The notes beneath the pieces are model-generated. The model saw only the letters and a program-made list of their open reading frames with translations, was not told where the DNA came from and ran no database searches. 32,443 nt of DNA from an uncultured bacterium (GTDB lineage Bacteria > CAZDME01 > JAYEMH01): the NCBI GenBank assembly GCA_964506785.1, contig CAZDME010000010.1, positions 1 through 32,443 of the forward strand. The letters run 5' to 3'. The position numbers and the translations under genes are program-made. Below, piece after piece: positions 3,310 to 26,552 of this stretch (its first letter is position 1; every line of letters begins with the position of its first letter).

Positions 3310-3337
3310 CTAACCCCCTCCTTTGTAACTGGCGGCT

Positions 3338-3366
3338 ACTATAGCATAGTAATAACAGTTTGTAAA
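3338..3366 (-). promoter_or_regulatory. Putative sigma70 promoter of the coiled-coil/mreBCD-mrdA operon
   Basis: Minus strand TTTACA-17 nt-TATAGT with an extended TG. Confidence 0.6.
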
Positions 3367-3392
3367 GGAATTTTTAAAGCCTCCTTTTTTTC

Positions 3393-3421
3393 TTGAAGTT
3401 CAACCCGAAATAAGGTAGTAT
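3393..3421 (+). promoter_or_regulatory. Putative divergent sigma70 promoter for the SurA-N gene
   Basis: TTGAAG-17 nt-TAGTAT; moderate match to consensus. Confidence 0.4.
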
Positions 3422-3478
3422 AGGAGTATCGCTTGAATTTTTCCTATTTTAGAACATTGCAAATAACGGAGGGAAAAG

Positions 3479-4102
3479 GTGCTTTTGCGAAAAATGCGAA
3501 AAAAGGTTAAAGTGATTATGTGGTTCACTTTGCTTCTTATTGTCCCGGCTTTCATCTGGTGGGGCATAGGTTCGACTACGGCTTCAAGAAAGAATCTACT
3601 TGCCAAGGTCGACGGCATTCCGATTACCCTGGACCAGTTTTCTCAAGCCTTTAATCTGCTTTATAACCGTTACGCCCTGTTATTCTCCAGCCTGGGCGAA
3701 GACGAATTTCGGGAAAAGATTCGAGGCCTTAATATCGAAAAACAAACTTTCTCTTTCCTCATCGAAAATATCCTTTTGCAAAGAGAGATAAAAAAACGGC
3801 AGATTAAGATAAGCGACGATGAAGTTGCCGGGGCAATTAGGAAAGAACCGTTTTTCCTCAATCCCGATGGCGCTTTTGACAAAGGGAAATTTACGCGGGC
3901 TATCGAAAATGTTCCCGAAGGTCAATGGCAGATTTGGGAGGATCAGGTGCGTTCCAGGCTCGCCTTGGAAAAGCTGAAAAACCAAATTATTGCTCAGGCC
4001 GCTCCCGGGGATAAAGAAACAGCCTATGCTGCCTGGCTGAGTAATTTAAAGAGCCAGGCGAAAATTGTCCAGAAAAACGAACTGCCCGAATTAGTCGAAT
4101 AA
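3479..4102 (+). CDS. SurA N-terminal domain protein (PpiD/SurA-like chaperone, no PPIase domain)
   Basis: GTG start after GGAGG; MLLRKMRK..IMW TM anchor, AKVDG..I, ISDDEV..AI...PFF...G.FD...F motifs as in PpiD N-termini. Confidence 0.85.
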   Translation: MLLRKMRKKVKVIMWFTLLLIVPAFIWWGIGSTTASRKNLLAKVDGIPITLDQFSQAFNLLYNRYALLFSSLGEDEFREKIRGLNIEKQTFSFLIENILLQREIKKRQIKISDDEVAGAIRKEPFFLNPDGAFDKGKFTRAIENVPEGQWQIWEDQVRSRLALEKLKNQIIAQAAPGDKETAYAAWLSNLKSQAKIVQKNELPELVE

Positions 4103-4116
4103 AATATCCGGGAACC

Positions 4117-4383
4117 TCAGATTTTTCTAAAGATAAAAACCGCCGATAGAATTCCCAGCGCGCTGCAAACGTTAATTTTCAGATTGAATCCGAAAGTCAA
4201 GGTTAAAACAATTAGATTCCAGGTGCTCGGGACTAAAGAAAGGTTTGGTCCCTGGACGAAAAACTGATGGATTTTCCCTGCCGGCATTATTATCCCGATA
4301 ATTTCGCCGATTAATCCGCCTAAAATCGCTCCGATGATAATAATCAGCAAGAGCAGCCCCAAGTTTTTGCCTACCCTAAACAT
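4117..4383 (-). CDS. DUF4321-like small membrane protein
   Basis: Likely start MFRVGKN at 4383, 1 nt after the rnfB stop; IIGAILGGLIGE and LTFGFNLKIN..S.LG pattern. Confidence 0.7.
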   Translation of the reverse strand: MFRVGKNLGLLLLIIIIGAILGGLIGEIIGIIMPAGKIHQFFVQGPNLSLVPSTWNLIVLTLTFGFNLKINVCSALGILSAVFIFRKI

Positions 4384-4384
4384 T

Positions 4385-5260
4385 CTATTTTTTCTCCTTT
4401 TCTTTTTTGAATTCAAAATTACTCTGGACGAATTTATCCATAGAAATTTCCCTTTCTTTCCGCCCGGGGACATTTTTAACCAGCCAGATGCTATGGGTGG
4501 GGCATTTTTTTACGCATTCACCGCAGGCGACGCAGATATTCGGATTTATCCGGGGCAGATTATTTTCCAGAACAATCGCTCCCACCGGGCAAACCTTAAC
4601 GCAAAGGCCGCAGCCAATACAGCCAACTTCACAGACCTCTTTTACCTGTTTCGCTTTATCTTGGGAACGACAAAGGACAAAAATCCGCTGCGTTCGTGGG
4701 ACCAGTTCGATAATTTCCCGGGGGCAACTTTCTACACACCGGCCGCAGCCAACGCATTTATTTTCATCGATTTTCGGCAGGTCGTTTTCCCTCATTGATA
4801 TCGCCCCGAAGGGACAGCTGGCCACACAGGTTCCTAAACCTAAGCATCCGTAGATACAGCCTTTTTTCCCTCCGGCGGTCAAGAGAGCCGCCCGGCAGTC
4901 TTTTATCCCCTGATAATCGAATTTTTCTTTGGCTTCTTTATTTCCGCCGCGGCAGCGGATTAAAGCAATTTGTTTTTCCCTGATTACCAGCTCTACCCCC
5001 ATTATTTTTGCGATTTTCCGGGAGACATCTTCTCCTCCGACACAGCAAAGGTCAGGGGCAACTTTACCCTCGGTGACGGCCTCGGCATAGGCGCGGCATC
5101 CCGCAAAACCGCAGGCGCCGGAATTACCTCCGGGAAGAATTTCTAAAATTCTTTCTGACCTTGGGTCGTTTTTGACCGCCAGTTTTTTGTAAGCCAGGCT
5201 CAGGCCCAAGCCCATCATTAAACCCAAACCGCCCAGTATTACTGCCGAGAGAAGTATCAT
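4385..5260 (-). CDS. rnfB: Rnf complex subunit B (polyferredoxin)
   Basis: TM anchor, LPGGN(S)GACGFAGC Fe-S domain, several CxxCxxCxxxCP motifs; last gene of rnfCDGEAB. Confidence 0.95.
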   Translation of the reverse strand: MILLSAVILGGLGLMMGLGLSLAYKKLAVKNDPRSERILEILPGGNSGACGFAGCRAYAEAVTEGKVAPDLCCVGGEDVSRKIAKIMGVELVIREKQIALIRCRGGNKEAKEKFDYQGIKDCRAALLTAGGKKGCIYGCLGLGTCVASCPFGAISMRENDLPKIDENKCVGCGRCVESCPREIIELVPRTQRIFVLCRSQDKAKQVKEVCEVGCIGCGLCVKVCPVGAIVLENNLPRINPNICVACGECVKKCPTHSIWLVKNVPGRKEREISMDKFVQSNFEFKKEKEKK

Positions 5261-5337
5261 ATCGAAATGTCGTTAACCGAAAAAGTAATTTTTTTTACAA
5301 AGTATTAAAACTTTTCTTTATACACGTTCCAGGCCGT

Positions 5338-5943
5338 CTACAGCCCAAACAATCCTTGGAAGCCCAGAAAAGTCAAAGCCAGGAGGCTGGCAGTTATAAA
5401 AATAATGGGATGCTCTTTAAATACATCCGGAATCGGCGCTAAAATTATTTTTTCCCGCAGGCTGGCAAAAATGACAATGACAACGGTATAGCCGACTCCG
5501 GTAGAAAAACTGTAAACCAGGGTTCTAAACAAACTCAGGGAATAATCTATGGAGAGAAAAGCCACCGCCAGAATCGCGCAGTTAGTCGTAATTAAAGGCA
5601 GATAAATACCCATGGCCTGGTAAAGCGCCGGGCTGAAGCGACGGATTACCATCTCTTCCAGCTGCACCAGGGTAGCAATGGCCAGGATAAATGAAGCTGT
5701 TCTAAGGAAAGTCAGGTCAAGGTGAAAGATTGAAGTTTCCGGGGCAAGGAGAAAATAATAGATTAACCACCCGGTTAAGGAGGCTATTACCATGACGAAG
5801 ATAACCGCCAGGCCCATTCCCAGCGAAGTTTTCATCTCTTTAGAAACGCCAAAAAAACCGCAGAGTCCCAGGAAACGCATTAAGAGGATGTTATTTATCA
5901 ATATGGCGTTTAAGGCAAGCAGGAAGATATTCAACTCATTCAT
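5338..5943 (-). CDS. rnfA: Rnf complex subunit A
   Basis: NNILL.RFLGLC and GIYLPLITTNCAIL motifs. Confidence 0.96.
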   Translation of the reverse strand: MNELNIFLLALNAILINNILLMRFLGLCGFFGVSKEMKTSLGMGLAVIFVMVIASLTGWLIYYFLLAPETSIFHLDLTFLRTASFILAIATLVQLEEMVIRRFSPALYQAMGIYLPLITTNCAILAVAFLSIDYSLSLFRTLVYSFSTGVGYTVVIVIFASLREKIILAPIPDVFKEHPIIFITASLLALTFLGFQGLFGL

Positions 5944-6563
5944 ATTATCGTTTTCCCTTTCAGGCGCTTAAGCCCGGCGATAAGAAAACCGATGGTCAAA
6001 AAAGCTCCGGGTGGTAAAATCATCAATGCTGCCGGGGAAAATCCGCTTCCCAGCAAATTTATTTTAAACGGCGGGATAAAAAGAAAAGGCGCCGGATTGG
6101 CAATTGCTCCGGTGCCCAGCACTTCTCTAATCAAACCGATAACCGAGATTGCCAATAAAAACCCTATTCCCATGCCCAAGCCGTCAATTAAAGAATTTAA
6201 AAGAGTATTTTTAGAAGCAAAGGCTTCGGCCCGTCCCAGGATGATACAGTTTACTACAATCAGGGGCACAAAAACCCCCAGTGATTTATAAAGCGAAGGT
6301 AGATAGGCATGCATGGTATAATCGGTTATAGTAACGAAAGTAGAGATAATAATGATAAATACCGGAATTCTAATCTGGCTGGGAATAATCCGCCGGATTA
6401 AGGAAATGGACATATTAGAACAGATTAAGACAAATATAGTGGCCAATCCCATCCCGAAGGCATCGCGGAGAGTCGTTGAGCAGGCAAGGATTGGGCAAAG
6501 GCCGATCATTAAAATCAAAACCGGATTTTCCCAAATAATTCCTCTTTTAAAAATATTTTTCAC
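5940..6563 (-). CDS. rnfE: Rnf complex subunit E
   Basis: ENPV...IGLCP.LA, PLIVVNCIILGRAE and LPPGAF motifs; GTG start. Confidence 0.96.
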   Translation of the reverse strand: MKNIFKRGIIWENPVLILMIGLCPILACSTTLRDAFGMGLATIFVLICSNMSISLIRRIIPSQIRIPVFIIIISTFVTITDYTMHAYLPSLYKSLGVFVPLIVVNCIILGRAEAFASKNTLLNSLIDGLGMGIGFLLAISVIGLIREVLGTGAIANPAPFLFIPPFKINLLGSGFSPAALMILPPGAFLTIGFLIAGLKRLKGKTII

Positions 6564-6589
6564 TTTCGCCTCTTACTTTCTATTTCTAC

Positions 6590-6629
6590 CCTGATCCCCT
6601 GATTACCCGATCTCCTGATTACCTGATCC
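6590..6629. repeat. Five tandem imperfect 8-mers (consensus CCTGATYM)
   Basis: cctgatcc cctgatta cccgatct cctgatta cctgatcc in the rnfG-rnfE intergenic region. Confidence 0.85.
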
Positions 6630-6663
6630 CAAAAACTTGCACCTCGTAGGTGCAAGTTTTTGG
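6629..6663. repeat. Perfect inverted repeat, 16-bp arms and 3-nt loop
   Basis: ccaaaaacttgcacct-cgt-aggtgcaagtttttgg. Confidence 0.9.
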
Positions 6664-6672
6664 TGCAAGGTT

Positions 6673-7227
6673 TTATTCGTTCTTTCTTAATTTTTCCTTT
6701 AAATTTTCCTCAAAAAATATTACCGCCTCTTTAAACCCTTTGGTAACCGCCCGGGAAGAGATGGTTGCCGAGGTCACCGCCTCGATTTTCCCTTGAGACG
6801 GTTCGTCCTTAATTAAGCCGAGTTCATCCTTATTTTTCCCTTTAAATTGCCCCAAAAAAACCGGCTCCAATATTTTCGCCCCTAACCCGGGAGTTTCATT
6901 TTGTTCTAAAATTTGAAAATTTGAAACCGTCCCGTCCAAATCCAGGCCGACTAACATTTTTATTTTTCCGCCGTAACCGGCGGCGCTTACGGGAATTATC
7001 ACTCCGATTAAATTTTCATCCGCGCCGAAAGCGAGAAAATACGGCTGCTTGCCGATTTTCCCCTCATCGAATCGTTCTCCTTCGAGAAATATTTTTTTAA
7101 GAAAATTATCTGCCCGGCTTTGGCCGGCAATTTTGTCTTTTGTCTGCCGAAAAACCTGGGCTAAACAAAAAGCCGAGATAAAGCAGATAATCCCTAAGAG
7201 TAAGCTGGTACGGATAATCTTAAGCAT
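6673..7227 (-). CDS. rnfG: Rnf complex subunit G (FMN-binding)
   Basis: GYGG.I, ETPGLG and FMN-attachment-like AVTSATISS motif; start placed at MLKII (7227), overlapping the rnfD stop. Confidence 0.94.
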   Translation of the reverse strand: MLKIIRTSLLLGIICFISAFCLAQVFRQTKDKIAGQSRADNFLKKIFLEGERFDEGKIGKQPYFLAFGADENLIGVIIPVSAAGYGGKIKMLVGLDLDGTVSNFQILEQNETPGLGAKILEPVFLGQFKGKNKDELGLIKDEPSQGKIEAVTSATISSRAVTKGFKEAVIFFEENLKEKLRKNE

Positions 7228-8179
7228 ATTTTCCCTTTCCAAAAAGGCGGGGCTGGGTATATCGTTCAATCAAAGGGGTAAGGGCATTCATGAAAAGAAT
7301 GGCAAACGCGACCCCCTCAGGGAAGCTACCCCAAAATCTGATTAAAGAGGTAACTAAACCGCAGCCGATGCCAAAGAAAATTTTTCCTCTGGGGGTAATG
7401 GGCGAAGTAACGTAATCAGTGGCCATAAAGATTGCCCCCAGCATTAAACCGCCGCTCAAAAGATTGAATAAGGCCGAACCGTGCCCGGGAAAAACCAGGC
7501 TCATAATAACTACCGTGCCTAAAAAACATCCGGGAATCCGCCAGGAAATTTGTCTTCTGAGGAGAAGATATAATCCGCCAAGGAGAAGACAAAAAGTCGA
7601 TGTTTCCCCTAAAGAGCCGCTGATATTTCCCCAGAAAAGGGCGCCATAATCAGGCAGTTTTTGGGCCGTCTCAGTTAAACCTTTGGCGATGGCTAAAGGC
7701 GTAGCCCCGGTTATTCCTTCAATAGCCGCTTTCCAGTTGGAGCGGGGTATCACCCATGTACTCATCTGGGCCGGCCAGGCAATATTCAAAACGGCCCGTC
7801 CGACTAGGGCCGGGTTAAAGAGGTTATACCCTAAGCCTCCGTAGATTTGCTTTCCCAGAATAATAGCCGTTGCCCCGCCAAAAAAACTCAGCCAGACCGG
7901 CAGTCCCGGCGGCAGACATAAAGCCAGAAGAATGCCGGTTAATAAGGCGCTGTTATCTTTGATAGAAACCGGCATTTTTCTGAGTTTCTGAAAAATAATT
8001 TCCGTTAAGAGTGTTGCCGAAACCGTGGACATTATTACTTTAACTGCCTGCCAGCCAAAAAAATAGATACTGGCGCAGACTGCCGGCAACAGGGCTAAAA
8101 TAACCTCCATCATAATAATTGGCGTTGTCAGCCGCGATTGAATATGAGGAGAAACGGAAACTAACAGTTTTTCTTTCAT
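7220..8179 (-). CDS. rnfD: Rnf complex subunit D
   Basis: SPHI, KQIYGGLGYNLFNPA, ITGATPL (FMN-Thr), GSLGETS and FMATDYVTSP motifs. Confidence 0.97.
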   Translation of the reverse strand: MKEKLLVSVSPHIQSRLTTPIIMMEVILALLPAVCASIYFFGWQAVKVIMSTVSATLLTEIIFQKLRKMPVSIKDNSALLTGILLALCLPPGLPVWLSFFGGATAIILGKQIYGGLGYNLFNPALVGRAVLNIAWPAQMSTWVIPRSNWKAAIEGITGATPLAIAKGLTETAQKLPDYGALFWGNISGSLGETSTFCLLLGGLYLLLRRQISWRIPGCFLGTVVIMSLVFPGHGSALFNLLSGGLMLGAIFMATDYVTSPITPRGKIFFGIGCGLVTSLIRFWGSFPEGVAFAILFMNALTPLIERYTQPRLFGKGKYA

Positions 8180-8215
8180 ATTAAAGAGACAGTTTTCGCC
8201 GGCATCTATTTTTTT

Positions 8216-9553
8216 CTATAGTTTATTTTTAAGTTTCGCCAGCTCACACTTGGCAAATTTAATCCAGTGCACCAAAGGAATACCCGAAGGGCAATTATAG
8301 GCGCAGGCCCCGCATTCCATACAATCACAGAGATGATACTCCTCTGTTTTCTCCCAGAGGTTATTGCGGGCAAAAAGAGCGATTTTATTAGGCATTAAGT
8401 TAACCGGACAAACCTCTGAACAGCGGCCGCATTGAATACAAGGAAACTCTTCTTTAGTCATGACCATTTCTTCGGAGAAGACCAAAATGCCCGAAGAACC
8501 CTTGATTATCGGTACATCTAAGGTATACTGGGCAAAACCCATCATCGGTCCGCCCATAATTATTTTTTTTGGTTCCTTTTTTAAGCCGCCGCTTTTATCG
8601 ATTAACTCCCGGACGGTAGTCCCGATTCTCACCCAGAAGTTCCCCGGGTTATTAACCGCTCCGTCTAAAGTAACCACCCGTTCGATTAGAGGCGTATCTT
8701 CATAAAAAGCCTGATAAACGGCATAAGCTGTCGCCGCGTTGCTGACAATTACCCCGACCTGATATGGGAATGTTCCCGAAGGAACTTCTCGATTTAAAAC
8801 TGCCTGTATCAACTGTTTCTCTGCTCCTTGAGGATATTTGACCTTTAAGACCACCACCTCCAAACCTGGCTCCTGTATGGTTATTTTTCGAAAGACCTTA
8901 ACCGCTTCCGGTTTATTTCCCTCGATGGCAATATAGCCTTTTTCCACTTCAACTGCCTGCATTAACAGTTTAAATCCTTTAACTATCTCCCGGGTTTTTT
9001 CCACCATTAATCGTTGGTCACAGGTCAGGTAGGGTTCGCATTCTGCTCCGTTTAGAATATAGGCATCGATTTTTTTATCTTTTGGGGGAGAAAGTTTTAT
9101 ATGCGTGGGAAAAGCCGCTCCGCCCAAACCGACAATTCCGTTTTCTTTGACAGTTTGAATAATTTCTTCCGGAGCCAAAGGCGACAAATCGGTTTTTGTT
9201 TCTTTTTGGAATAAATCAATTTCCCTCTCCTCGCTTTCAATAACCATTGCCTTTCCCTGGCCTTTAAGCGGGTGAGGCATCTCTTTTATCTGGGTAATTC
9301 GTCCCGTAATCGGGGCATGAATAGAGGCTGAACATTCCCCGGCCGATTCGGCAATTTTTGTCCCGGCCAAAACCTCATCCCCTGTTTTATATAAAGGCCG
9401 GGCAGATCTGCCCAGGTGTTGGTCTAAAGGAATAATTACCTTAGTCGGCAGAGGCAGACGCTCTATGGCTTTATTGGCGGTTTTAGCCTTAAAAGCCCGG
9501 GGAAGTTTTATTCCCCCCTTAAAACTTAAAAAATCACTGGTTTGGATAGCCAT
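8216..9553 (-). CDS. rnfC: Rnf complex subunit C
   Basis: GIVGLGGAAFPT, NGAECEPYLT.D, YPQGAEK, GGPMMG and two 4Fe-4S motifs. Confidence 0.98.
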   Translation of the reverse strand: MAIQTSDFLSFKGGIKLPRAFKAKTANKAIERLPLPTKVIIPLDQHLGRSARPLYKTGDEVLAGTKIAESAGECSASIHAPITGRITQIKEMPHPLKGQGKAMVIESEEREIDLFQKETKTDLSPLAPEEIIQTVKENGIVGLGGAAFPTHIKLSPPKDKKIDAYILNGAECEPYLTCDQRLMVEKTREIVKGFKLLMQAVEVEKGYIAIEGNKPEAVKVFRKITIQEPGLEVVVLKVKYPQGAEKQLIQAVLNREVPSGTFPYQVGVIVSNAATAYAVYQAFYEDTPLIERVVTLDGAVNNPGNFWVRIGTTVRELIDKSGGLKKEPKKIIMGGPMMGFAQYTLDVPIIKGSSGILVFSEEMVMTKEEFPCIQCGRCSEVCPVNLMPNKIALFARNNLWEKTEEYHLCDCMECGACAYNCPSGIPLVHWIKFAKCELAKLKNKL

Positions 9554-9613
9554 TTTTTAAACTGCCGGATAAATTTCCTTTAACGGTTATTGCCTTTGAG
9601 GTAGGAGTTAGTT

Positions 9614-9892
9614 TCATTTCGAAACTTCACTTAGAGATTTTTTTAATTCTTCTGACAACGGGGCGACTCCTTCCCAGCGTCTGATAATTTGGCCGTCTTT
9701 TTCTAAAACTATGGTTGGAATTTTCCCGACATCATAAAAGGCGCCTTCGGCTAATCCTTCGGCGCTTTCAAGGTCATAGTAAGTTACCTCAATTTTATCC
9801 TGGTACTGCCAGTGGGCTAAAAAAAAGGAGACTTTTTTCTTAGCCGATTGACAGAGGCTGCAGCTTTCTTTGCCAAAAATCTTTATTTTCAT
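9614..9892 (-). CDS. Thioredoxin/glutaredoxin-like (NrdH-like) redoxin
   Basis: 92 aa, KIFGKESCSLC (CxxC) and cis-Pro motif KIPTIV; 1 nt downstream of nrdD. Confidence 0.85.
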   Translation of the reverse strand: MKIKIFGKESCSLCQSAKKKVSFFLAHWQYQDKIEVTYYDLESAEGLAEGAFYDVGKIPTIVLEKDGQIIRRWEGVAPLSEELKKSLSEVSK

Positions 9893-9893
9893 T

Positions 9894-12290
9894 TTAGGCT
9901 ACCTGATAGGTTCCTTTCTGTCTATCCTTTAATTCGCCCAGTTTTGATTTGTTCCAGTTATCCACCCGGCTGAAATAACCCACCACCCGGGTGACGCCGT
10001 AAACATTACTGCTTTGGCATGACGGGCAGACCTCTTTTATCCCCCGGCTGTTACGATGGCAATCTTCGCAGATGGTAAACTCCGGGGAAATAGTAAGCTG
10101 GGCTGCCTGGGTATTTTTAAAAGTTTTTTCCACCAGGTTCAGGATACTTTTTGCATTTGGCTTCTGCTCGCCGACAAAAGCATGAAGGATAGCTCCGGAT
10201 TCAATCATTGTATGGAATTTACTTTGCTTTTGGATTCTCTCTATCAAGCTTATCGGCGCGTCGGCGCGGAAGTGGATAGAGTTGGTGTAATAATATTCGT
10301 CTTTGTCAATATCTCCTTTAATAACCGACTGTGATTCGGGATATTCCCTCATATCCACCTTGGCCAGCCGGCGGGCGGCTGATTCAGCCGGGCTCTCTTC
10401 TAATGAAAAGCGGAGATTATATTTCTTTTCGGCCTCTTTGGCTCTCAGGTACATCATAGAGATAATCTTCAGTCCTAATTTAAATGTTTCATCGCTTTCA
10501 TGCAATTCCTTTCCGGTTATATACTGGACGCATTCATTCAGGCCGATTAAACCGATAATATAAGTTGCACTTTCCAAATCAACATAGGGACGGCCGTCTT
10601 TGGCGATTTTGCCTATCTGCCAGAGAGGCATACCCGGCTCTTTCATTAAATCGGCAATAAAGGCTTTTTTCTCTATGTGCGCCTTGATAGCCAAGCCAAT
10701 ACCCAGTTCAATTTCCTTAAACAATCCTTCTATATTTCCCCGGCCCGCTCGATAGGCGGCTTGCGGAAGATTGATAGTTACATTCTGAAAACCGCAGAAC
10801 CTCATGCTTTCCGGATGTTCTATCATGTAATTATCTTTAATTTGTGTCCTTAGCCGGCAGCAGGCGGAAAGAGTAATTTCATCCCGGTCAAAAACAAAAT
10901 AAGGACTGCCGTTTTCACTAGCCACCTGACAGGCATACTCTAATAACTCCTTTTGTTTAGGGTCTGTGAAGGATTCATCGTTAACATGGAGGTCGCATTT
11001 AGGAAAGGCAAATACGTGTCCGTATCTATCGCCCTGCCGCCAGACATCCAGCATCGCCCGGGCAAAATTTTGCGATTCCTTTTCGTATTCGCCGTAGGTT
11101 CTTCCGGTATATTCCCCTTTTGGCCCGATGGCCGGGATTTTACGAAGATATCTGGGTATGCCTAAATGGACGTTAGCATCGATAAATAAGGTTTGTCCTC
11201 CCCGGCTGAAAGCATTCTGCGAACCGCTATAAATCAGATACTGGGCTTCTTGCTGTAATTGAGAAGCGTTCATTCCGACTAAAAAGGGCGCGTATAGAAT
11301 GTTGATATAGCCTATTCCTAAAGCCCCGGCATAATAGGCCTGCATCGAAGCCAAAAATGTATTTAGATGTCCGGTAAGGGTCCGGGCGTGGGCGGCCGGA
11401 GCCGAACTGGTATAGAGGTTTTCCAGCTCCAATCCATACTTTTTGATATATTCCAGGGAATGTGATGAACAATAAACCCGGGTCGGATAGCCTAAATCAT
11501 GGAGATGAATAATCCCCCGCAGGTGGGCATCGGATATCTCCTTGCTAAAAATCCGGCTCAAGGCATATTGTTTCAGGGTATTTTCGGCAATAGATAAATT
11601 AACCGCTTCCGGGTTATTGGCGGCAATATTGCTGTTTTCGTTGCTTTTTGAGCGGACTAACTGTTCTAGATCATAAGAAGGCATGCCGACAATAACCTGC
11701 TTGGCTAATTTTGTTTTATAATCCCGTTCGAAAAGTTCGTTATCCACTAATTCCCTGATTAAGGAAGTGGAGATTTGCTTCAGGCCCGATTGAAATATTT
11801 TTTGTTCTACCGCCGCCGCAATTTCCGCTGCTATTTTGCCGGGGACACCGGCTTCTTTCATCAAAGCTTGAGCAATATAATCTTTATTCCAGGGCATAAT
11901 TTCGTCCCGGCTGGATGGAAAGACCAATAAAGATAAATCGGTAGTGCTCCCGGAGAGGCGGACTTCTTTCCTTACCTTCAAGCTTTCCCGCTGGCGGGTT
12001 CTTTCATTCCGGTAAAGAATATAAACCTTGGCGGTTTTGGCGTGTCCGGTTTCCATTAGCACCTTTTCGACGATATCCTGGATATCTTCAATATTGGGGG
12101 ATTGACCGGCGTACTTTTTCTGCAGGAAAAGGGTAACCGCTTCACTCAATTCTTCCGCCAGGAGCCGGTCCTCGCCGTTTACCGCTCGAGCCGCTTTAAA
12201 AATAGCTTCGGCAATTTTTCGTTTGTCAAAGGGGACCTGACGGCCATCCCTCTTTTGTACCGTTTCAATCGTCTCTGTTTTGGTTATCAT
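9894..12290 (-). CDS. nrdD: Anaerobic (class III) ribonucleoside-triphosphate reductase with two N-terminal ATP-cones
   Basis: VQKRDG ATP-cone plus a second cone, HLHDL, SACCRL, EESPAES, YYTNS, zinc finger CEDC...CPSC and glycyl-radical motif TRVVGYF. Confidence 0.97.
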   Translation of the reverse strand: MITKTETIETVQKRDGRQVPFDKRKIAEAIFKAARAVNGEDRLLAEELSEAVTLFLQKKYAGQSPNIEDIQDIVEKVLMETGHAKTAKVYILYRNERTRQRESLKVRKEVRLSGSTTDLSLLVFPSSRDEIMPWNKDYIAQALMKEAGVPGKIAAEIAAAVEQKIFQSGLKQISTSLIRELVDNELFERDYKTKLAKQVIVGMPSYDLEQLVRSKSNENSNIAANNPEAVNLSIAENTLKQYALSRIFSKEISDAHLRGIIHLHDLGYPTRVYCSSHSLEYIKKYGLELENLYTSSAPAAHARTLTGHLNTFLASMQAYYAGALGIGYINILYAPFLVGMNASQLQQEAQYLIYSGSQNAFSRGGQTLFIDANVHLGIPRYLRKIPAIGPKGEYTGRTYGEYEKESQNFARAMLDVWRQGDRYGHVFAFPKCDLHVNDESFTDPKQKELLEYACQVASENGSPYFVFDRDEITLSACCRLRTQIKDNYMIEHPESMRFCGFQNVTINLPQAAYRAGRGNIEGLFKEIELGIGLAIKAHIEKKAFIADLMKEPGMPLWQIGKIAKDGRPYVDLESATYIIGLIGLNECVQYITGKELHESDETFKLGLKIISMMYLRAKEAEKKYNLRFSLEESPAESAARRLAKVDMREYPESQSVIKGDIDKDEYYYTNSIHFRADAPISLIERIQKQSKFHTMIESGAILHAFVGEQKPNAKSILNLVEKTFKNTQAAQLTISPEFTICEDCHRNSRGIKEVCPSCQSSNVYGVTRVVGYFSRVDNWNKSKLGELKDRQKGTYQVA

Positions 12291-12291
12291 T

Positions 12292-12753
12292 TCATCTCTC
12301 CTTTTCTTTCTTCAGTCCTTTTACCGCCTGCATAAATTCCGTTGCATCTTTGAATTGCCGGTAAACCGAGGCAAAGCGGACATAGGCTACCTGGTCAAGT
12401 TTTTTCAGCCGGTTCATTACCTCTTCGCCGATAGCACTGCTTTTAACCTCTTTTTCCAATTTATTTTCAAAAAAAATCTCGATATCGCTGATAATCCTTT
12501 CGATTTCTTCCGTACTAATCGGCCTTTTCTCGCAGGATTTTATGAGGCCCCCTTTTATCTTTGTCCGGTCAAAGGCCTCCCGGCGGCCGTCTTTTTTTAT
12601 GACCATTAAGGGGATTTTTTCTACATATTCATAGGTGGTATAACGTTTTAAGCACTGGGAGCATTCCCGGCGGCGGCGAACGGCTCTTCCTTCTTGAGCC
12701 AGGCGGGAGTCAATTACCTTGTCATTATCTTTTCCGCAATATGGACAGAGCAT
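12292..12753 (-). CDS. nrdR: Transcriptional repressor NrdR
   Basis: CPYC...VIDSR...RRRREC..C zinc ribbon, ATP-cone, VAYVRFASVYR; start placed at MLCPYC. Confidence 0.98.
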   Translation of the reverse strand: MLCPYCGKDNDKVIDSRLAQEGRAVRRRRECSQCLKRYTTYEYVEKIPLMVIKKDGRREAFDRTKIKGGLIKSCEKRPISTEEIERIISDIEIFFENKLEKEVKSSAIGEEVMNRLKKLDQVAYVRFASVYRQFKDATEFMQAVKGLKKEKER

Positions 12754-12837
12754 CTGGGACTCCCTCATTCCCCAAAATTACTTTTTGAACCCCTATCGGT
12801 GGGTTTTCCCATTAAAAACTACCAATTCAATGAGAAA

Positions 12838-12884
12838 CTACATTATCTTGTGGGGATTGTATCGTATCACACTAGATATAGATG
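12838..12884. promoter_or_regulatory. Tandem NrdR boxes
   Basis: ctaCAttATcTTGtgg (12838-12853) and acaCTAgATaTAGatg (12869-12884) match acaCwAtATaTwGtg; their starts are 31 bp apart, the typical tandem spacing. Confidence 0.85.
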
Positions 12885-12890
12885 TGTCAA
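12861..12890 (-). promoter_or_regulatory. sigma70 promoter of nrdR-nrdD
   Basis: TTGACA (12890-12885), 18 nt, then TACGAT with an extended TG; the spacer contains an NrdR box. Confidence 0.75.
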
Positions 12891-12916
12891 GAAAAAATTT
12901 TTTATTCCCAAAAAAA

Positions 12917-15382
12917 CTATTTTCCGGAAAGCGTCCTAAGTGTGTTTTCAAAATTGGCATATTCCGCTTCGATATTACCCGTCTCTATTGGCGCGATAGC
13001 AATAAATAATTCCGGTTTTAATTTCTTAAAAGGAAGCTTTAAATTTTCGACATAACCGCTCACCTCACACCAGTCCTTTTTATTTTTAACATCCAATCCT
13101 GCTTTCTCAAAGTATTTTCCCCATTCTAAATCGAATTTTGTCTTTAGCATATGGACACGGTCAAACCAAATCTCGCTTAAATGCGCTCTCCGGAAATCGC
13201 CCCAGTTTAAGATTACCCTTTGAAACTTGGTTTTCGATAAAATAGCGTTTCTAAAGCACGACGCTTCCAAACACATATCCCAAAAACGCGCTCCAGTGAG
13301 TATTGCCCCTTTGAAATTAGACCACCCTAAATAATTATTAGTCCACCTTAGATAATTAAATGCAAAAACAGATCGAGTTAAATAAACCCTTTCAAAGTCA
13401 AATGCCATTAAATCGAACATTCCAGAAAGCAAGTTAACATTAATTAAATTTTTTCTTTCTCCTTTAATAAATTTAGCCCATTCGGCGTTCTTGTTTTTTA
13501 AATCGCTTACTCTTTTCTGTTGAAGCTGGTCCCAATCTATAAATTTTAAACCTTTTAAATTTCCCTCTGAATCTAATTTTACTAAAACATTTTCATCATG
13601 TAACTCCGCATAGAAAAAGTTTTCTTCACCTCGCCGGTAAGTTTTCTTTATTGCCCGGTTAAGATTAACCCTTACCTCATCTAAATTTTTTATTTTGTTG
13701 TTTCCTAGCGCTTCCGATAAGGTCTGGTACCCTAAAGGAATTAAATTAAGCTCATAATGATATTTTTCTTGACCATCGATAAAAAATGTTGGACAGACCC
13801 AGCGGCCCTTTCGGCTGAAGAGCTCTTTCATGGCCATAATATCCGCCGTAACTTTGATTTTTTTTACAATTTGTAAACCATTTTTGTGTTCATAGACCCT
13901 AAATTTTTCTATTTTTTCATCTTTTTTTTCGGCTTTCTTAAAATTTTCAAGCCCATTCTTTTTTAAATCCCCTGCCAATTCAATCACCCTTTTATCTTCC
14001 CAGAGGTTTATCTCTTCTATGAGCTTCGGCTCTTCTATATTAATCGGTTCTTTTTCCTTGCCGGCGATGGCTTCTTTTAAACTGACCGCCATTGAATAGA
14101 CTTCTTTCATTCCTCCCCGGCTTTCGAAGATAACTATTGATATCTTTCTTTTTTCCGAAAGCCTCTCCAGGGCTTCCCGTTCTTTTGTTTTCCCTTTGAT
14201 AACACAAAGAATATCTTCTGTGTTAACACCCTTGGTTTCGGCAAATTCAATCAGGGCATTAATCTCATCTGCTTCGCTAAGATTGGCCGGGATTTCTCCT
14301 TCTTCCGGCCGGATTATCCCATCCGGGTTGATTCCTTTGATTTCCTTTGCCAGTTTTTCGACGACATCCCCTTTTACCGAATCCCCGGCGTAGATAATGA
14401 CCTTGTCCAGGGTTTTATTTTCTGTAAGCACCCCTAAACTCTCCTTTAAATCCAATACTGCCCCGTTATCCAATAAGGCCTCGGCAAAGATAATCGGTGT
14501 TTTCCCCGCCAGCCTCTTTTCCCGACAAACCTCATCAAGCTCTTTTAAACTTTTGTTATAATCTTTTACTTTTCCTTTTACTTCCGCCATAGCCGCTTTA
14601 AAATTATCAATTTTAATCTTCGCTTTAAATTTAGGTAAAAGCTCCCTAACCGTCCTATCCACTAATTCCATATTAAAAACTTTAGTCTCATCAGAAGCAT
14701 TTTTCCAATCCCACAACTTATTCCCTAACATCTCTCCCGCAATCTGTCTTACATATTGTGACGGGACGGTATAAGAATCTTCCAAAATAAAAACGAATTT
14801 TTTGCCTTCCTGATTCTCATAAAATAAATATCCTTCGTTAACCCCGATATGTTTTGATATCTCGTTTAAAGTATTTATAGGTTTATTCCTGCAGTGGCGA
14901 TTATCATTCAAAATTTTCAAAATCTCAAATTTTTTTGGGACAGGTACCGCATGTAAATGGGCATGAACAATTGAATTTCCCCCTTGATTCTTATTTTCTT
15001 CATCTAGTATTGTCGAACCGTGTTCAAAAAACACAACATCTTGGCCGTATATATCTTTCAGTATCTGCCTAAGATAAATTTTAAGGGCTTCTAACTCTGT
15101 TAATTGCGCCTCATCAAAACTAGCCATACAAAACACATGATCTTTGGTGGTAATTAAAAGATGTCCTGGCGCTAAAGGATTATAATCCGGCAATACCTTG
15201 AAATTATCTGTTTCAAATAATATTTTCGGATCATTGCATATTCTACATGAAGCTAATGTTTCTTCCCTTTCCAATATATTTTCTATTTTTTTTGTATCGG
15301 CGAGATGTTCTTTATTTGCTGCTGGACGTAAATAGGCATCCGGCTTTGCCTCTGCCAAATCCGTAAAGGTCAGATTAGACAA
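12917..15382 (-). CDS. Multidomain protein: HIT (Cwf19/CwfJ-like) nucleotide hydrolase, unknown domain, atypical protein-kinase-like domain and pentapeptide repeats. The true N-terminus probably lies upstream across a frameshift.
   Basis: CRIC...PLAPGHLLI...FFEHG...HAHLH (14965-14951)...SQYVR...WDWK; VKK...YAELHDENVLV...FIDWD; SNFKG AILTG ARFWD MCLEA SCFRN AILSK TKFQR repeats. Confidence 0.8.
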   Translation of the reverse strand: MSNLTFTDLAEAKPDAYLRPAANKEHLADTKKIENILEREETLASCRICNDPKILFETDNFKVLPDYNPLAPGHLLITTKDHVFCMASFDEAQLTELEALKIYLRQILKDIYGQDVVFFEHGSTILDEENKNQGGNSIVHAHLHAVPVPKKFEILKILNDNRHCRNKPINTLNEISKHIGVNEGYLFYENQEGKKFVFILEDSYTVPSQYVRQIAGEMLGNKLWDWKNASDETKVFNMELVDRTVRELLPKFKAKIKIDNFKAAMAEVKGKVKDYNKSLKELDEVCREKRLAGKTPIIFAEALLDNGAVLDLKESLGVLTENKTLDKVIIYAGDSVKGDVVEKLAKEIKGINPDGIIRPEEGEIPANLSEADEINALIEFAETKGVNTEDILCVIKGKTKEREALERLSEKRKISIVIFESRGGMKEVYSMAVSLKEAIAGKEKEPINIEEPKLIEEINLWEDKRVIELAGDLKKNGLENFKKAEKKDEKIEKFRVYEHKNGLQIVKKIKVTADIMAMKELFSRKGRWVCPTFFIDGQEKYHYELNLIPLGYQTLSEALGNNKIKNLDEVRVNLNRAIKKTYRRGEENFFYAELHDENVLVKLDSEGNLKGLKFIDWDQLQQKRVSDLKNKNAEWAKFIKGERKNLINVNLLSGMFDLMAFDFERVYLTRSVFAFNYLRWTNNYLGWSNFKGAILTGARFWDMCLEASCFRNAILSKTKFQRVILNWGDFRRAHLSEIWFDRVHMLKTKFDLEWGKYFEKAGLDVKNKKDWCEVSGYVENLKLPFKKLKPELFIAIAPIETGNIEAEYANFENTLRTLSGK

Positions 15383-15510
15383 AAAACCCCTATAACAACT
15401 GCCGAAGTTGCCTTTAGGAGCTTCTGTCTTAGTTTACGGTTCACCGTGTACAGTTTACAGTTATTCATCGAAATTAATATCCGCCCTGGATTAGGTCTCG
15501 CCTCACTCAT
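15370..15510 (-). CDS. Short ORF encoding the signal-peptide n/h region of the downstream multidomain gene (frameshifted 5' part)
   Basis: MSEARPNPGRILISMNNCKLYTVNRKLRQKLLKATSAVVIGVFCLI* (alternative ATG at 15468). One extra T in the T6 run at 15381-15386 fuses it in frame to ...IGVFLSNLTFTDLAEA-KPDAYLRP. Confidence 0.65.
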   Translation of the reverse strand: MSEARPNPGRILISMNNCKLYTVNRKLRQKLLKATSAVVIGVFCLI

Positions 15511-15566: not shown

Positions 15567-15593
15567 ATTATAGGATATCCGATATCCTATAAT
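15567..15593. repeat. Palindrome with 13-bp arms and a 1-nt centre
   Basis: attataggatatc-c-gatatcctataat. Confidence 0.9.
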
Positions 15594-15689
15594 ATTTATC
15601 CCCTCTAGATTGTTTCTAAATCTAAGAGCTGGGGATTAATTCGCCCAGTGACTTATGTTTGCTGACGCTCCATAAGTTACGGGCTCATT

Positions 15690-15726
15690 AAAAAAAGCTG
15701 AATCACCTATTTCTAGGCAACTCAGC
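15690..15726 (-). terminator. Intrinsic terminator, expression platform of the riboswitch
   Basis: GCUGAGUUGCCUA-GAAA-UAGGUGAUUCAGC followed by U7; 13-bp stem with G-U pairs. Confidence 0.9.
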
Positions 15727-15795
15727 CATTCTTGCTTTCGGCAAGACCTGTAGTTTTGCGTCTCCGCCTTACGGCGGATTTGCCTTTATCTAGTA
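15712..15795 (-). ncRNA. Cyclic di-GMP-I (GEMM-I) riboswitch aptamer
   Basis: Minus strand CUAGAUAAA-GGCAAA-UCCGCC-GUAA-GGCGGA-GACGCAAA-ACUACAGGUCUUGC-CGAAA-GCAAGAAUGGCUGAG-UUGCC-UAG shows the GGCAAA, GNRA loop, GACGCAAA, GGUCU and UUGCC hallmarks. Confidence 0.92.
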
Positions 15796-15811: not shown

Positions 15812-15840
15812 AGTATAGCATATAAAGAAGGAAAAGTCAA
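15812..15840 (-). promoter_or_regulatory. sigma70 promoter driving the riboswitch leader
   Basis: TTGACT-17 nt-TATACT with an extended TG, just upstream of the aptamer. Confidence 0.8.
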
Positions 15841-22911: not shown

Positions 22912-23949
22912 CTACACAACCCGCACTTCTTTTTTCCCCTGGACGATTGTCCCAATCGAATAAGCCTTAACCTTCATTTTCCTCAATTGCTGTAAAACCC
23001 GTAATTCATCCTTCTGGCCGATAACCAGAGTCATCCCGACACCCATATTAAAAGTCCGAAACATCTCGTAATCGTTAATATTGGCCTCTTTCTGGATAAA
23101 TTCAAAAATAGGATAAACCGGCCAGCTTCCCTTTTCGATAATGGCCGTCTTGTTTTCCGGAAGAATTCGTATAATATTGTCGTAGAAGCCGCCTCCGGTA
23201 ATGTGAGCCGCTCCTTTAAGAGAAAATTTTTCATTAAGGGCTAAAACCGTTTTTACATAAATCGCCGTGGGCTTAAGCAATTCTTGAGATAATTTTCTCT
23301 TCAAGGCGGTTACATTCTGATTTATTTTATATTTCAATTTTTCGAAAAAAATCTTTCGCGCTAAAGAGTATCCGTTGCTATGCAGTCCGTTGGAGGCAAG
23401 GCCGATTATTATATCGCCCCGGGCAATTTTTCTCCCGGTAATCATTTTGGATTTTTCGGCTATTCCCACGGCAAAACCGGCTAAATCAAAGCCGTCGAGA
23501 GGGTACACCCCGGGCATCTCCGCCGTTTCTCCGCCGATTAAGGCGCAGCCGGCTTCCCGGCAGCCCCGGGCGATTCCTTTAATCATCTCTTTGGTCCTTT
23601 TCCAATCGAGCTTTCCCATGGCGATATAATCGAGAAAGAATAAGGGTTCCGCCCCGTGAACGACTAAATCGTTTACTGACATAGCTACCAGGTCAATGCC
23701 GATAGTATCGTACCGGCCGGCCATTTTGGCGACGATGATTTTTGTTCCGACTCCATCGGTGGCGGCCACCAGTAAAGGCTCCTTATAATTTCGAAGAAAA
23801 GGTTTAAATAAACCGCCGAAACCGCCAATTTCGCCTATAACCCCGTCTCGGTCGGTTGTTTTAAGCAGCCGGCGGATTTCTTTTACCAGGCGGTTTCCTT
23901 CATCGATATTTACCCCGGCTTCTTTATAAGTCAGTTTTTTTTTCTTCAT
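22912..23949 (-). CDS. purM: Phosphoribosylformylglycinamidine cyclo-ligase (AIR synthetase)
   Basis: TYKEAGV, TDGVGTK, NDL...GAEP, GGETAEMP, HSNGYSL, HITGGG and TFNMG motifs; start MKKKKLTY overlaps the purL stop (ATGA). Confidence 0.97.
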   Translation of the reverse strand: MKKKKLTYKEAGVNIDEGNRLVKEIRRLLKTTDRDGVIGEIGGFGGLFKPFLRNYKEPLLVAATDGVGTKIIVAKMAGRYDTIGIDLVAMSVNDLVVHGAEPLFFLDYIAMGKLDWKRTKEMIKGIARGCREAGCALIGGETAEMPGVYPLDGFDLAGFAVGIAEKSKMITGRKIARGDIIIGLASNGLHSNGYSLARKIFFEKLKYKINQNVTALKRKLSQELLKPTAIYVKTVLALNEKFSLKGAAHITGGGFYDNIIRILPENKTAIIEKGSWPVYPIFEFIQKEANINDYEMFRTFNMGVGMTLVIGQKDELRVLQQLRKMKVKAYSIGTIVQGKKEVRVV

Positions 23950-26552
23950 CGTTTCCTTTTTTTCGCTCGCTTCTTCTTCCCGGTCTTCTTTGTTTTTACC
24001 TTTTTCCTTCTGGAGACCCGTTTTGTTTGAGGTTTCTTTTTTATTGTAGTCTTCTTCGGTTTTCTTGTTATTTTTTTCGCTTTCTTTTTGCCCTTCGTTT
24101 TTTTCCTTTTCTTCTTTGCCGTCTTCGGNNNNNNNNNNNNNNNNNNNNNNNNNNNNNNNNNNNNNNNNNNNNNNNNNNNNNNNNNNNNNNNNNNNNNNNN
24201 NNNNNNNNNNNNNNNNNNNNNNNNNNNNTTCCTTTTCTTCTTTGCCGTCTTCGGTCTGCCTTCTACCTTCTCCCGTTTCTTTTTTAACAGCTTCCGAAAA
24301 GTTTCTTCCCACTTTTCTTTCAATCTTGCCAGAGGTAAATTTATTATTTTTTTCTCGTTTCTGCTAATCAGAAGTTTATTGCCTTCAACCTTTCCAATCG
24401 GGTTAAAAGCCGCCTTTAATTTTTGCGCCAGATTTTGCAGGGCCAAAAGGGCCGAAGGGGCAAAGGAAACAACGAATCGCGACTGTGATTCTCCAAACAG
24501 CAAGGCATCGCTCCTCACTGGTTCTCTCACCTTGAATTCCATCTGCGGTGTCCTTTTTCCCCAATTAAAAACTACATCGGATATTTTAATGTCAGCGCCT
24601 AACATTTTCTTGGGGTTATTCAGGCAGCATTTCGCCAGGGCAACGGCCAGGCCGCCTTCGGCGCAGCCATGAGCAGAATTAAGCAGACCCTGCTGAATAG
24701 CCGTCAAACAAAATTTTTGCCCTTTCTTTTCGGTATCCCAATCGATTTCCGGGGCATCGCCTTTTTTTAATCCATAGACTGTTTTTAAATATTCGCTTCC
24801 TCCGATTTCGTTCTTTGTCTCGCCGATTAGGGCAATAAGGTCTCCTCTTTTCTTAAAGTGAGGGGTTGTCGTTTTTTGATAATCGTCGATAACTCCGGCC
24901 ATTCCTATTATCGGCGTGGGGTCGATGGCCCCATGGGGATTTTCATTATTCAAACTTACATTGCCGCTTACTACCGGTGTATTTAATTGACGGCAGGCTT
25001 CGCTAATTCCTTCGACACATTTCCGCAGCTGCCAGAAATTTTCCGCTTTCATTGGATTGCCGAAATTTAATCCGTCGGTTATAGCTAAAGGTTTTGCCCC
25101 GGAGCAGACTAAACTGCGCGCGGCTTCAGCTACCGCAATTGCCCCTCCGCGATAAGGGTTCAGGAAACAGTAGGTGCCGTTGCCCTTAACTGTCCAGGCC
25201 GCTGCTTTCTGGCTGTTGGGCAGGCGGATGGCGGCCGCTTCCGAACCCGGGCCGAGTAAAATCCTTTTCCGCAGACTTGGTTTAATCTGGTTATAAACTA
25301 TTTGCTGGCAGGCAATATTTACCGACGCTAAAAGTTTTAATAACACTTGATTATAATCTGACGGCTCTTTTATTTCCTCAAAGTTGTAGCTCATTGTCTC
25401 GGCGATATATGCCGGTGTTTTTATCTCCCGAAGATACTCTGGAGCTTCGACTAATATTTTTGACGGCACCTCGGCGACAATCTTTCCGTCCTGCCTGATT
25501 CTTAAAATACCGTCATCAGTCACCACCCCTATTTTTACTGCCGGTATTTTCCGCTTCTCAAGAATTTCCAGGGCTAAATGTTCTCTTTCCGGATTTAACA
25601 CTAAAAGCATTCTCTCTTGCGATTCGGACAGCATCACTTCATAGGGATTCATCCTGGCTGACTTTCTTGGGACCAGGCCGACGTCGATATCCATTCCCCG
25701 GCCGCCTTTATACGACATCTCGGAAGTCGAGCAGACCAATCCGGCGGCTCCCATATCCTGCATTCCTTCGACACATTTTTTTTCCATCAGTTCCAGGCAG
25801 GCCTGGCGGAGAATTTTGCCCAATTTAGGGTCGCCGATGGCCACTGCCGAAGAATCTATTTTTTTCGATTCGTCGATTCCTCCCGAAGCGAAAGCCGCCC
25901 CGCCGATTCCGTCACGGCCGGCTGCCCCGCCAATGGTATAGACCAAACTGCCGGCATTCGATGCTTTCGCCCGGATTAAGTTTTTCTTTTGTAAAATACC
26001 CACGCACATAGCGTTAACCAGAGGGTTCTTTTCATAGGAAGCGTCAAAGGATATTTCTCCTCCTAAGACCGGCACTTCGGCAGTATTGGCATAGTAAAAA
26101 AAACCCCGGCCGACTTCTCTCAAAAGATACTGAACATGCTTATTTTCCGCCCGGCCAAAACGCAGTGAATAAAGCAGCCCCACTGGTTCTGCCCCCATGG
26201 TAAAGATATCGCGGGCAACCCCTCCTCCACCGGTAGCGGCCGCTTCAAAAGGCTCAATGGCCGAGGGATGGTTATGAGATTCGACTTTCATCGCCACGGC
26301 CATGCCGTCGCCGATTTCGACGACACCGGCATTTTCTCCCGGCCCCTGAATAACCTGCGGCCCGGAGGTAGGGAAAAGCTTTAAAACCGATTTCGAGTTT
26401 TTATAAGAACAGTGCTCTGACCACATTGCCGAGAAAAGCCCCAGTTCGGTATAGTTTGGTTCCCGGCCTAAGTATTTAACGATTTTTTTGTATTCTTCCT
26501 GGGTTAAACCTTGCTCTTCTATCATCTGCGGCGTTATTTTTATCTCTTCCAT
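23946..26552 (-). CDS. purL: Phosphoribosylformylglycinamidine synthase, small PurL subunit, with a Lys-rich C-terminal tail (spans the N gap)
   Basis: WSEHCSYK, KVESHNHPS, RDIFTMGA.P, QDMGAAG, SESQERM and LNFGNP motifs; no glutaminase domain. Confidence 0.95.
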   Translation of the reverse strand: MEEIKITPQMIEEQGLTQEEYKKIVKYLGREPNYTELGLFSAMWSEHCSYKNSKSVLKLFPTSGPQVIQGPGENAGVVEIGDGMAVAMKVESHNHPSAIEPFEAAATGGGGVARDIFTMGAEPVGLLYSLRFGRAENKHVQYLLREVGRGFFYYANTAEVPVLGGEISFDASYEKNPLVNAMCVGILQKKNLIRAKASNAGSLVYTIGGAAGRDGIGGAAFASGGIDESKKIDSSAVAIGDPKLGKILRQACLELMEKKCVEGMQDMGAAGLVCSTSEMSYKGGRGMDIDVGLVPRKSARMNPYEVMLSESQERMLLVLNPEREHLALEILEKRKIPAVKIGVVTDDGILRIRQDGKIVAEVPSKILVEAPEYLREIKTPAYIAETMSYNFEEIKEPSDYNQVLLKLLASVNIACQQIVYNQIKPSLRKRILLGPGSEAAAIRLPNSQKAAAWTVKGNGTYCFLNPYRGGAIAVAEAARSLVCSGAKPLAITDGLNFGNPMKAENFWQLRKCVEGISEACRQLNTPVVSGNVSLNNENPHGAIDPTPIIGMAGVIDDYQKTTTPHFKKRGDLIALIGETKNEIGGSEYLKTVYGLKKGDAPEIDWDTEKKGQKFCLTAIQQGLLNSAHGCAEGGLAVALAKCCLNNPKKMLGADIKISDVVFNWGKRTPQMEFKVREPVRSDALLFGESQSRFVVSFAPSALLALQNLAQKLKAAFNPIGKVEGNKLLISRNEKKIINLPLARLKEKWEETFRKLLKKKREKVEGRPKTAKKKRXXXXXXXXXXXXXXXXXXXXXXXXXXXXXXXXXXPKTAKKKRKKTKGKKKAKKITRKPKKTTIKKKPQTKRVSRRKKVKTKKTGKKKRAKKRKR
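24129..24228. other. Assembly gap (100 N) flanked by an identical 26-bp sequence
   Basis: ttccttttcttctttgccgtcttcgg occurs at both 24103-24128 and 24229-24254. Confidence 0.95.

Follow-up and report, generated by a model that had tools for sequence, protein, structure and literature searches.

Probable recent one-base inactivation of a gene for a predicted exported protein behind a cyclic di-GMP riboswitch in an uncultured Omnitrophota-like bacterium

Analysis of a 32,443-nt stretch of DNA from an uncultured bacterium (contig CAZDME010000010.1 of assembly GCA_964506785.1), referred to as the window throughout, revealed a minus-strand gene whose signal-peptide-like leader is divided between two reading frames at a G4T6 run. 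We read this break as a real and recent single-base OFF mutation in an accessory gene for an exported protein, with a probability of roughly 0.6. An initial annotation of the same DNA had offered three causes for the offset, namely a homopolymer error of the assembly, recent inactivation and phase variation, and of these recent inactivation fits best. Its reading stands in part: the leader and the one-base break were borne out, while a riboswitch with its terminator, the protein family to which the product belongs and a slippery heptamer, G_GUU_UUU, had been overlooked.

The run and the two open reading frames (ORFs) that meet at it were found on the minus strand at the positions originally given. 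The upstream ORF extends from ATG 15510 to 15370 (46 aa) and contains a second ATG at 15468. Pairing with the anti-Shine-Dalgarno sequence is predicted at -6.5 kcal/mol for ATG 15468 and -3.4 kcal/mol for ATG 15510, making the former the likelier start. The long ORF (15382-12917) runs for 2,463 nt from a TTG codon that takes the last two T of the T6 run. With the frame of the upstream ORF as reference its own is -1, and the two are one missing base apart at G4 (15390-15387) and T6 (15386-15381). The elements at the break are as follows.

15370..15468, minus strand: upstream ORF, holding the n-region and the first half of the h-region; identified by leader profile, and as long as homologue leaders
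15381..15390, minus strand: G4T6 run, site of the one-base break, with the in-frame G_GUU_UUU at 15388-15382; from the sequence and the leader profile
15323..15382, minus strand: second leader half in the -1 frame, with the remaining h-region, an A-E-A cleavage-like site (ending at 15347) and the xLRx family motif
12917..15382, minus strand: long ORF, TTG start, 821 aa, open throughout

Homologues were collected with a HMMER search of residues 250-640 of the long product against 1.84 billion representative sequences, which returned 102 proteins including the query. A C-terminal domain is shared by 57 of these, and a tree calculated from it places the window protein in a clade of 16 rows (SH-aLRT 90). 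Comparison with homologues had been set beforehand as the test of whether a leaderless start at the TTG position is the rule. It is not: among the other 15 rows the same leader stands in frame in 12, one protein has a different hydrophobic N-terminus, one is a 247-aa piece lacking any hydrophobic N-terminus, and a single protein (P0040) begins internally, at the point that corresponds to the window TTG. A profile was built from 11 in-frame leaders, the window excluded, picked by eye from homologues that had been retrieved through a different part of the protein. Its scores were 26 bits for the upstream ORF and 25 bits (24.7; profile columns 27-61) for the beginning of the long frame. Of 1,237 segments taken from the six frames of the window, the two halves ranked first and second (E 3e-7 and 4e-7), and the third stood at 0.027. 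Because homologues carry the leader in frame and the profile matches both halves, sequence comparison confirms that the two ORFs hold the two parts of one signal-peptide-like leader cut by a one-nucleotide offset, as had been proposed.

The rejoined leader has the three parts ascribed to it at the outset. Its n-region carries a net charge of +6 before the best 11-residue hydropathy window, the hydropathy of that window is 1.93 with X at the break (0.33 in the form starting at TTG), and the cleavage-like site reads A-E-A. The -1 Ala of this site is found in 12/12 full-leader homologues, and position -3 is mostly Ala with a few Val or Gly.

When the read-through leader was scored with an X for the frame change placed at different codons, 54-61 bits were reached at codons 40-46 and 28 bits at codons 25-32; the break therefore lies at the T run or within about 15 nt of it. 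The residue at the break column is Ala in 10 of 12 homologues and Val in the other 2, followed by a Phe that all 12 share. Given Ala or Val at this column, loss of a T and loss of the base at the G/T boundary fit equally well. Accordingly, the suggestion that one added T rejoins the leader is right as to a one-base loss at or near the run, but the base is not necessarily T. Within the sequence that encodes the leader, the G4T6 run is also the 3' side of an imperfect hairpin (15370-15440, minus strand; z -3.1), and this quasi-palindrome could have promoted a deletion or could mask the ribosome-binding site of the TTG.

The first question raised by such a break is whether it exists in the cell. 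A consensus or assembly error at the homopolymer, with an intact gene and an exported product in reality, would agree with the in-frame homologues, with the integrity of the remainder of the gene and of its control region, and with the position of the break at a run; moreover, the locus was pre-selected as broken, and a low error rate is no bar to a rare error. Error rates were estimated from conserved genes. No homopolymer shift was seen in 102 runs of 6 or more nt in 27 conserved window genes (26,128 nt), and a G4T8 run in purL (26107-26096), longer than the G4T6 run, is in an open frame. A second, non-circular control covered 347 gene copies from 45 of 80 fetched loci, labelled Omnitrophota or Planctomycetota, and gave 0 shifts in 642 runs. 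The sole frame change in these copies was a 100-N gap, in addition to which there were two in-alignment stops, one of them internal in glyA (the copy at L003:8716-9948, plus strand, with the stop at aligned residue 298). Pooling all 744 runs gave an upper 95% bound of 0.4% per run, which corresponds to about 5.5% for the 14 runs of the window gene and 2% for the 5 runs of the gene at locus L060 described below. The window itself holds a 100-N gap with duplicated flanks, the same form as the gap met in the control, which lies in a short-read scaffold, and this suggests that short reads underlie the window assembly. Short reads have a low indel error. An assembly error is disfavoured on these grounds, and we hold it to be an unlikely cause.

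A real mutation would have to be young, judging from how little the sequence has decayed. The upstream, out-of-frame half of the leader has a mean identity of 70% to the 11 homologues, which are 65% identical among themselves, and the identity of the family C-terminal domain to its homologues is 36%. With a leader half as close to the homologues as these are to each other and a domain at 36%, the leader would have been under selection until recently. Of all substitutions in the long ORF 5.6% would give a stop; since there is none in 2,463 nt, neutral divergence of more than about 2% since inactivation is unlikely. The sequence thus indicates that the lesion is young. Upstream of the gene a promoter-like site, an aptamer and a terminator also look intact.

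15812..15840, minus strand: sigma70-type promoter-like site, TTGACT, 17 nt, extended -10 TATACT, 10/12 matches
15712..15793, minus strand: c-di-GMP-I (GGC variant) riboswitch aptamer, RF03167, 66.8 bits against a gathering score of 59, E 6.8e-14, full model 1-80
15690..15727, minus strand: intrinsic terminator, 14-bp stem and U tract, its 5' arm overlapping the 3' strand of the aptamer
15567..15690, minus strand: structured 5' untranslated region (UTR) with two hairpins (15690-15590) and a perfect 13-bp inverted repeat (15567-15593), fold z -5.4

Two promoter-like sites occur in the region against a mean of 1.9 in shuffled sequence, and the main support for the listed site is its place before the riboswitch. 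The aptamer is a full-length match to the GGC variant of the cyclic di-GMP (c-di-GMP) class (RF03167, clan CL00126) with an overlapping terminator, and is structurally no different from it. When positions 15690-15711 were included in the fold, the terminator hairpin displaced the 3' pairing of the aptamer (z -4.6), and we infer that aptamer and overlapping terminator make up the expression platform of an ON switch. Position 20 of the aptamer in Vc2 numbering would be G here. In the c-di-GMP-I class G20 goes with specificity for c-di-GMP and A20 with specificity for c-GAMP, according to PMC6140456. The 13-bp inverted repeat and the two hairpins sit between the terminator and the start codon and may be an operator or another RNA element, and no further Rfam family reached its gathering score in the 5' UTR (15567-15690). 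No riboswitch was found in 8 related loci, L060 included.

Under recent inactivation the gene would behave as follows. Binding of c-di-GMP would prevent formation of the terminator, and the gene would be transcribed at high c-di-GMP. Ribosomes starting at ATG 15468 would meet the stop at 15372-15370 after 32 codons, and little or no exported protein would be made. Some leaderless, cytoplasmic 821-aa product might arise from the TTG, which lies 10 nt before the upstream stop, and a small amount of full-length product might arise by chance -1 slippage at G_GUU_UUU, a site that could serve as a low basal leak of the OFF allele. In the intact state the leader would send a cargo of a HIT domain and a kinase-fold module through Sec. 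The lesion itself would be a replication error of the ordinary sort, made at a short run of an accessory gene and reverting only at the low rates known for runs of 6 or 7 nt. For the 5' A6/A7 run of Listeria inlA, PMC2831843 gives a reversion rate from A6 to A7 of about 5.5e-7. The likeness to the runs of Listeria monocytogenes inlA (A6/A7), swrA, flhA and vaa is close, these also being one-base losses at the 5' end, in runs of 6 or 7 nt, of surface or exported genes; as in the inlA type of frameshift, a short peptide would be made here and the remaining gene is intact. For those tracts, however, both alleles and their rates have been measured in many strains, whereas here one allele was seen, in a run that is not conserved in the homologues.

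Several points weigh against recent inactivation. The control on window genes was partly circular, open genes having been chosen for it. Among the homologues compared, orthologues of the species itself or of a near relative are lacking, the best listed match of the neighbouring NrdR being at 63%. Export was judged from profile and hydropathy only, and the 1.93 of the window leader is below the 2.3-2.8 of 10 homologues. The last two points concern the other members of the family. At L060, the one further family gene with known DNA context likewise seems to be divided at a run, and gene calling placed the start of P0040 at the internal position of the window TTG. Recurrence of breaks in these two would favour a selected switch over passive mutation.

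L060 holds the only second family gene among 1,716 ORFs of 80 loci. It (3325-9871, plus strand) appears to be divided between ORFs 3325-5850 and 5792-9871, which overlap and meet at an A7 run (5803-5809). Both match the same intact homologues, the first ORF at their N-termini and the second in their C-terminal domains. The first carries a leader and an N-terminal domain, the second a cargo that is helicase-like by motif and the C-terminal domain. The leader profile itself had no match among the 1,716 ORFs. P0040, on a contig of 4,104 nt, is without the first leader half, and may be a third case of a break or an effect of the contig edge or of start calling.

The corresponding alternative is that runs of 6-7 nt are selected as reversible ON/OFF switches of an exported cargo family. 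The break maps to the G4T6 run near the 5' end of the gene, where run length sets the frame, and PMC2831843 reports 5' homopolymer runs as enriched in prokaryotic genes, such tracts being enriched in surface or exported proteins of the kind that is likely here. The A7 at the L060 junction and the internal start of P0040 are of a piece with this, and the Phe next to the break is invariant, so that a T-rich stretch is built into the leader. Yet the tract is neither conserved among homologues, in which the Ala at 10/12 break columns interrupts the run (at protein level), nor unusually long for the genome. The conserved window genes hold 25 sense-strand T runs of 6-8 nt, and the same source puts runs of 6 or 7 nt at about 1e-7 to 1e-8 and most switches of 8-9 nt at 1e-3 to 1e-5. 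The L060 break is internal and outside the leader, and each of the two ORFs there could be translated on its own; the P0040 contig is short enough for its start to be an edge or start-call effect; and DNA was seen for just two genes, of which one had been pre-selected. A phase-variable alternation of exported and cytoplasmic forms, which the initial annotation had raised, is unproven, and we give such a switch little weight. An extended form of it, a polymorphic arsenal of Omnitrophota type in which leader, swappable cargo and C-terminal sorting domain are gated by c-di-GMP and individual members toggled by slippage at 6-7 nt, draws on the apparent breaks at runs in both family genes with DNA, against 0/744 in conserved genes, and on the internal start of P0040, and is likewise speculative. 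The literature searched described no phase variation in Omnitrophota.

The offset could also be functional, with -1 frameshifting at G_GUU_UUU or transcriptional slippage on T6 setting a fixed ratio of exported to non-exported product. The earlier statement that the upstream frame contains no canonical slippery heptamer is correct for a strict X_XXY_YYZ but misses the variant heptamer, at which a -1 shift would join the two halves exactly. According to PMC5009743, cardioviruses use G_GU in the role of X_XX, as does phage T7 gene 10, which is translated by bacterial ribosomes. The hairpin at 15440-15370 given above covers the site and the bases immediately 5' of it, in a folding window that was chosen after the fact. 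At those viral sites a -1 shift needs 3' stimulators (in T7 a distant 3' element), according to the same paper, whereas no stimulator was found here in the fold of the 3' 82 nt (z -0.64) or as an internal Shine-Dalgarno pairing 6-17 nt upstream, the search covering local elements. The offset is not conserved either, the nearest homologues (not true orthologues) being in frame in 12 of 15 cases and mostly having Ala in place of the motif, and conserved genes have 7 in-frame copies of G_GUU_UUU over 8,285 codon positions. As for transcription, E. coli RNA polymerase gives no detectable slippage below T7 according to PMC6260861. Programmed frameshifting is disfavoured, and we regard functional recoding as distinctly improbable.

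Least probable by far is that the leader is a relic and the protein a stable cytoplasmic one made from TTG 15382. The codon is preceded by an SD-like (Shine-Dalgarno-like) AGGGG at short spacing, with a pairing of -5.2 kcal/mol against a median of -4.5 for 21 housekeeping starts, and in the clade no branches are longer than those of the window protein and P0040 (1.16 and 1.34). HIT and kinase folds are usually cytoplasmic, which also counts in its favour. The undecayed state of the out-of-frame leader half, at 70% identity, nevertheless marks the present condition of the gene as recent and not stable.

The product affected by the mutation is composite, and was divided into the following parts.

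14933..15232, minus strand: HIT (histidine triad) domain, residues ~51-150, HxHxH intact; PF01230, PF04677 and PF11969 above gathering score
14054..14620, minus strand: core of the family C-terminal domain, residues 255-443; family-domain profile 156 bits, no Pfam family
13463..14035, minus strand: module of protein-kinase-like fold, residues 450-640; model pLDDT 87.8, Z 9.9, rmsd 3.7, 167 aligned
13133..13345, minus strand: pentapeptide-repeat region, residues 680-750; PF00805 22.7 bits against a cut-off of 20.2
12923..13015, minus strand: final 31 residues (790-820) belonging to the family C-terminal domain, displaced; profile 187-217, E 3.4e-7

The structural model of the family domain (pLDDT 88.5) is a Rossmann/HAD-like alpha/beta fold with a middling best structural Z of 8.4 (rmsd 3.2, 127 aligned), a HAD match that is not separated from those to other Rossmann folds. 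There was no Foldseek match in the PDB at E 0.001, no usable match in the ESM Atlas, and none in phages, plasmids or NCBIfam, blanks which do not show that the fold is new. For the kinase-fold module 63 chains were found at Z >=8 (at least 8), and among the 50 matches listed nearly all are kinases by description. At the usual position of the catalytic Asp in the catalytic-loop motif there is Glu here and His in the family consensus, and activity of the modelled module is doubtful.

In 55 of the 57 family proteins the shared domain ends no more than 3 residues from the C-terminus, and its core stands away from the C-terminus in just 2 of the 57. In the window protein the kinase-fold and pentapeptide module (14035-13015, minus strand) is inserted within the domain, between the core and the last 31 residues. 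The terminal position suggests that the domain may be a sorting or anchoring module. The last ~30 residues were also considered as a general export signal, an idea that found no support: a tail profile matched 1 of 49 held-out proteins, namely the window protein.

A signal-like N-terminus, by hydropathy and charge, is present in 33 of the 57 proteins, the other 24 including the window protein and some contig-edge fragments. Homologues reach 6,375 aa. Cargo domains were recognised in 7 of the 15 close homologues scanned (alpha/beta hydrolase, HEAT, TPR, carbohydrate-binding, ARMT1/PHP and PEP-utilising) and in 8 of the 15 none was. The 90% cluster of the window protein contains 4 member sequences on 2 contigs. 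Further searches added little: a word-index search with the full-length protein returned only itself, residues 1-120 matched nothing among 43 candidate shorter proteins, and the family-domain alignment found 3 matches among longer proteins, all previously retrieved. Taken together, leader, variable cargo and conserved C-terminal domain suggest an undescribed protein family; it did not appear in the literature searched, and the supplements of preprints may list such proteins.

At another locus, L004:5875-9708 and 10517-13465 (plus strand) encode two large proteins in which a leader is followed by an xLRP motif; one of them has a domain that is Ser/Thr-kinase-like by motif. They score with neither the leader nor the C-terminal-domain profile, the leader likeness having been seen by eye only. 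The two genes flank a small ORF that by motif resembles a REP-associated transposase.

The combination has partial parallels. As an analogy, cargo of the type IX secretion system (T9SS) with its C-terminal domain (CTD) likewise has a Sec-type leader, variable cargo and a conserved extreme C-terminal domain. Unlike the Ig-like sandwich of the T9SS CTD, the family fold here is Rossmann/HAD-like, and none of the tests made here links a secretion machine to it. Long, multi-domain proteins with signal peptides have been described in Omnitrophota, and their export and a role in predation have been proposed (West-Roberts 2023, 10.1101/2023.11.21.568195; bioRxiv 10.64898/2026.06.07.730766). Like these, the window protein joins a leader to borrowed enzyme domains in an Omnitrophota-like genome. 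In contrast to them it has only ~850 aa, there are no type II secretion (T2SS) or pilus genes in the window, and its family is defined by a conserved C-terminal domain that was not found described in the portions of the large-protein papers at hand. The terms frameshift, riboswitch and homopolymer do not occur in 10.64898/2026.06.07.730766.

A 5' single-base frameshift is an already known kind of event, and a single one is ordinary; its effect is that gene callers report a leaderless, apparently cytoplasmic protein and export goes unseen in annotation. The family is little described, and it is the setting that lifts the event: a shared domain without a Pfam or NCBIfam model, control by a c-di-GMP riboswitch, and a lineage to which a predatory or host-dependent life is ascribed. 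If family genes were systematically switched at short runs, a candidate effector repertoire of Omnitrophota would be phase-variable. Worth following are the unnamed family of leader, cargo and C-terminal domain, along with its regulation by c-di-GMP, and what looks like a second break, in L060.

The accessory nature of the gene was deduced from its place between a deaminase gene and nrdR. These two lie within 174 nt of each other in 19 of 23 related loci and about 3.1 kb apart here, so the broken gene is an accessory insertion. The other 4 of the 23 loci (L038, L043, L074 and L028) have unrelated insertions of 0.4-3.5 kb at the same place, which indicates that the site tolerates insertions. 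The closest NrdR matches among those listed are of Omnitrophota type (up to 63% identity), and in a GlyA tree with one outgroup the window branches outside 40 Omnitrophota-type loci. On sequence grounds the organism would be either a deep Omnitrophota or a member of a neighbouring lineage, both placements being compatible with these results.

Elsewhere in the window, nrdR, nrdD and a glutaredoxin-like gene are directly followed by a complete rnfCDGEAB cluster (4385-12768, minus strand); nrdR adjoins a close nrdD homologue (71%) in just 1 of the 80 loci (L006). A 718-aa membrane protein with a spermidine-synthase-like domain is encoded between purB and an isochorismatase-family gene (28955-31111, minus strand). 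At 23946-24312 (minus strand) purL ends in a Lys/Arg-rich low-complexity tail across the 100-N gap (24129-24228) with its duplicated flanks, and the long 5' extension of the purM ORF is probably a product of that gap.

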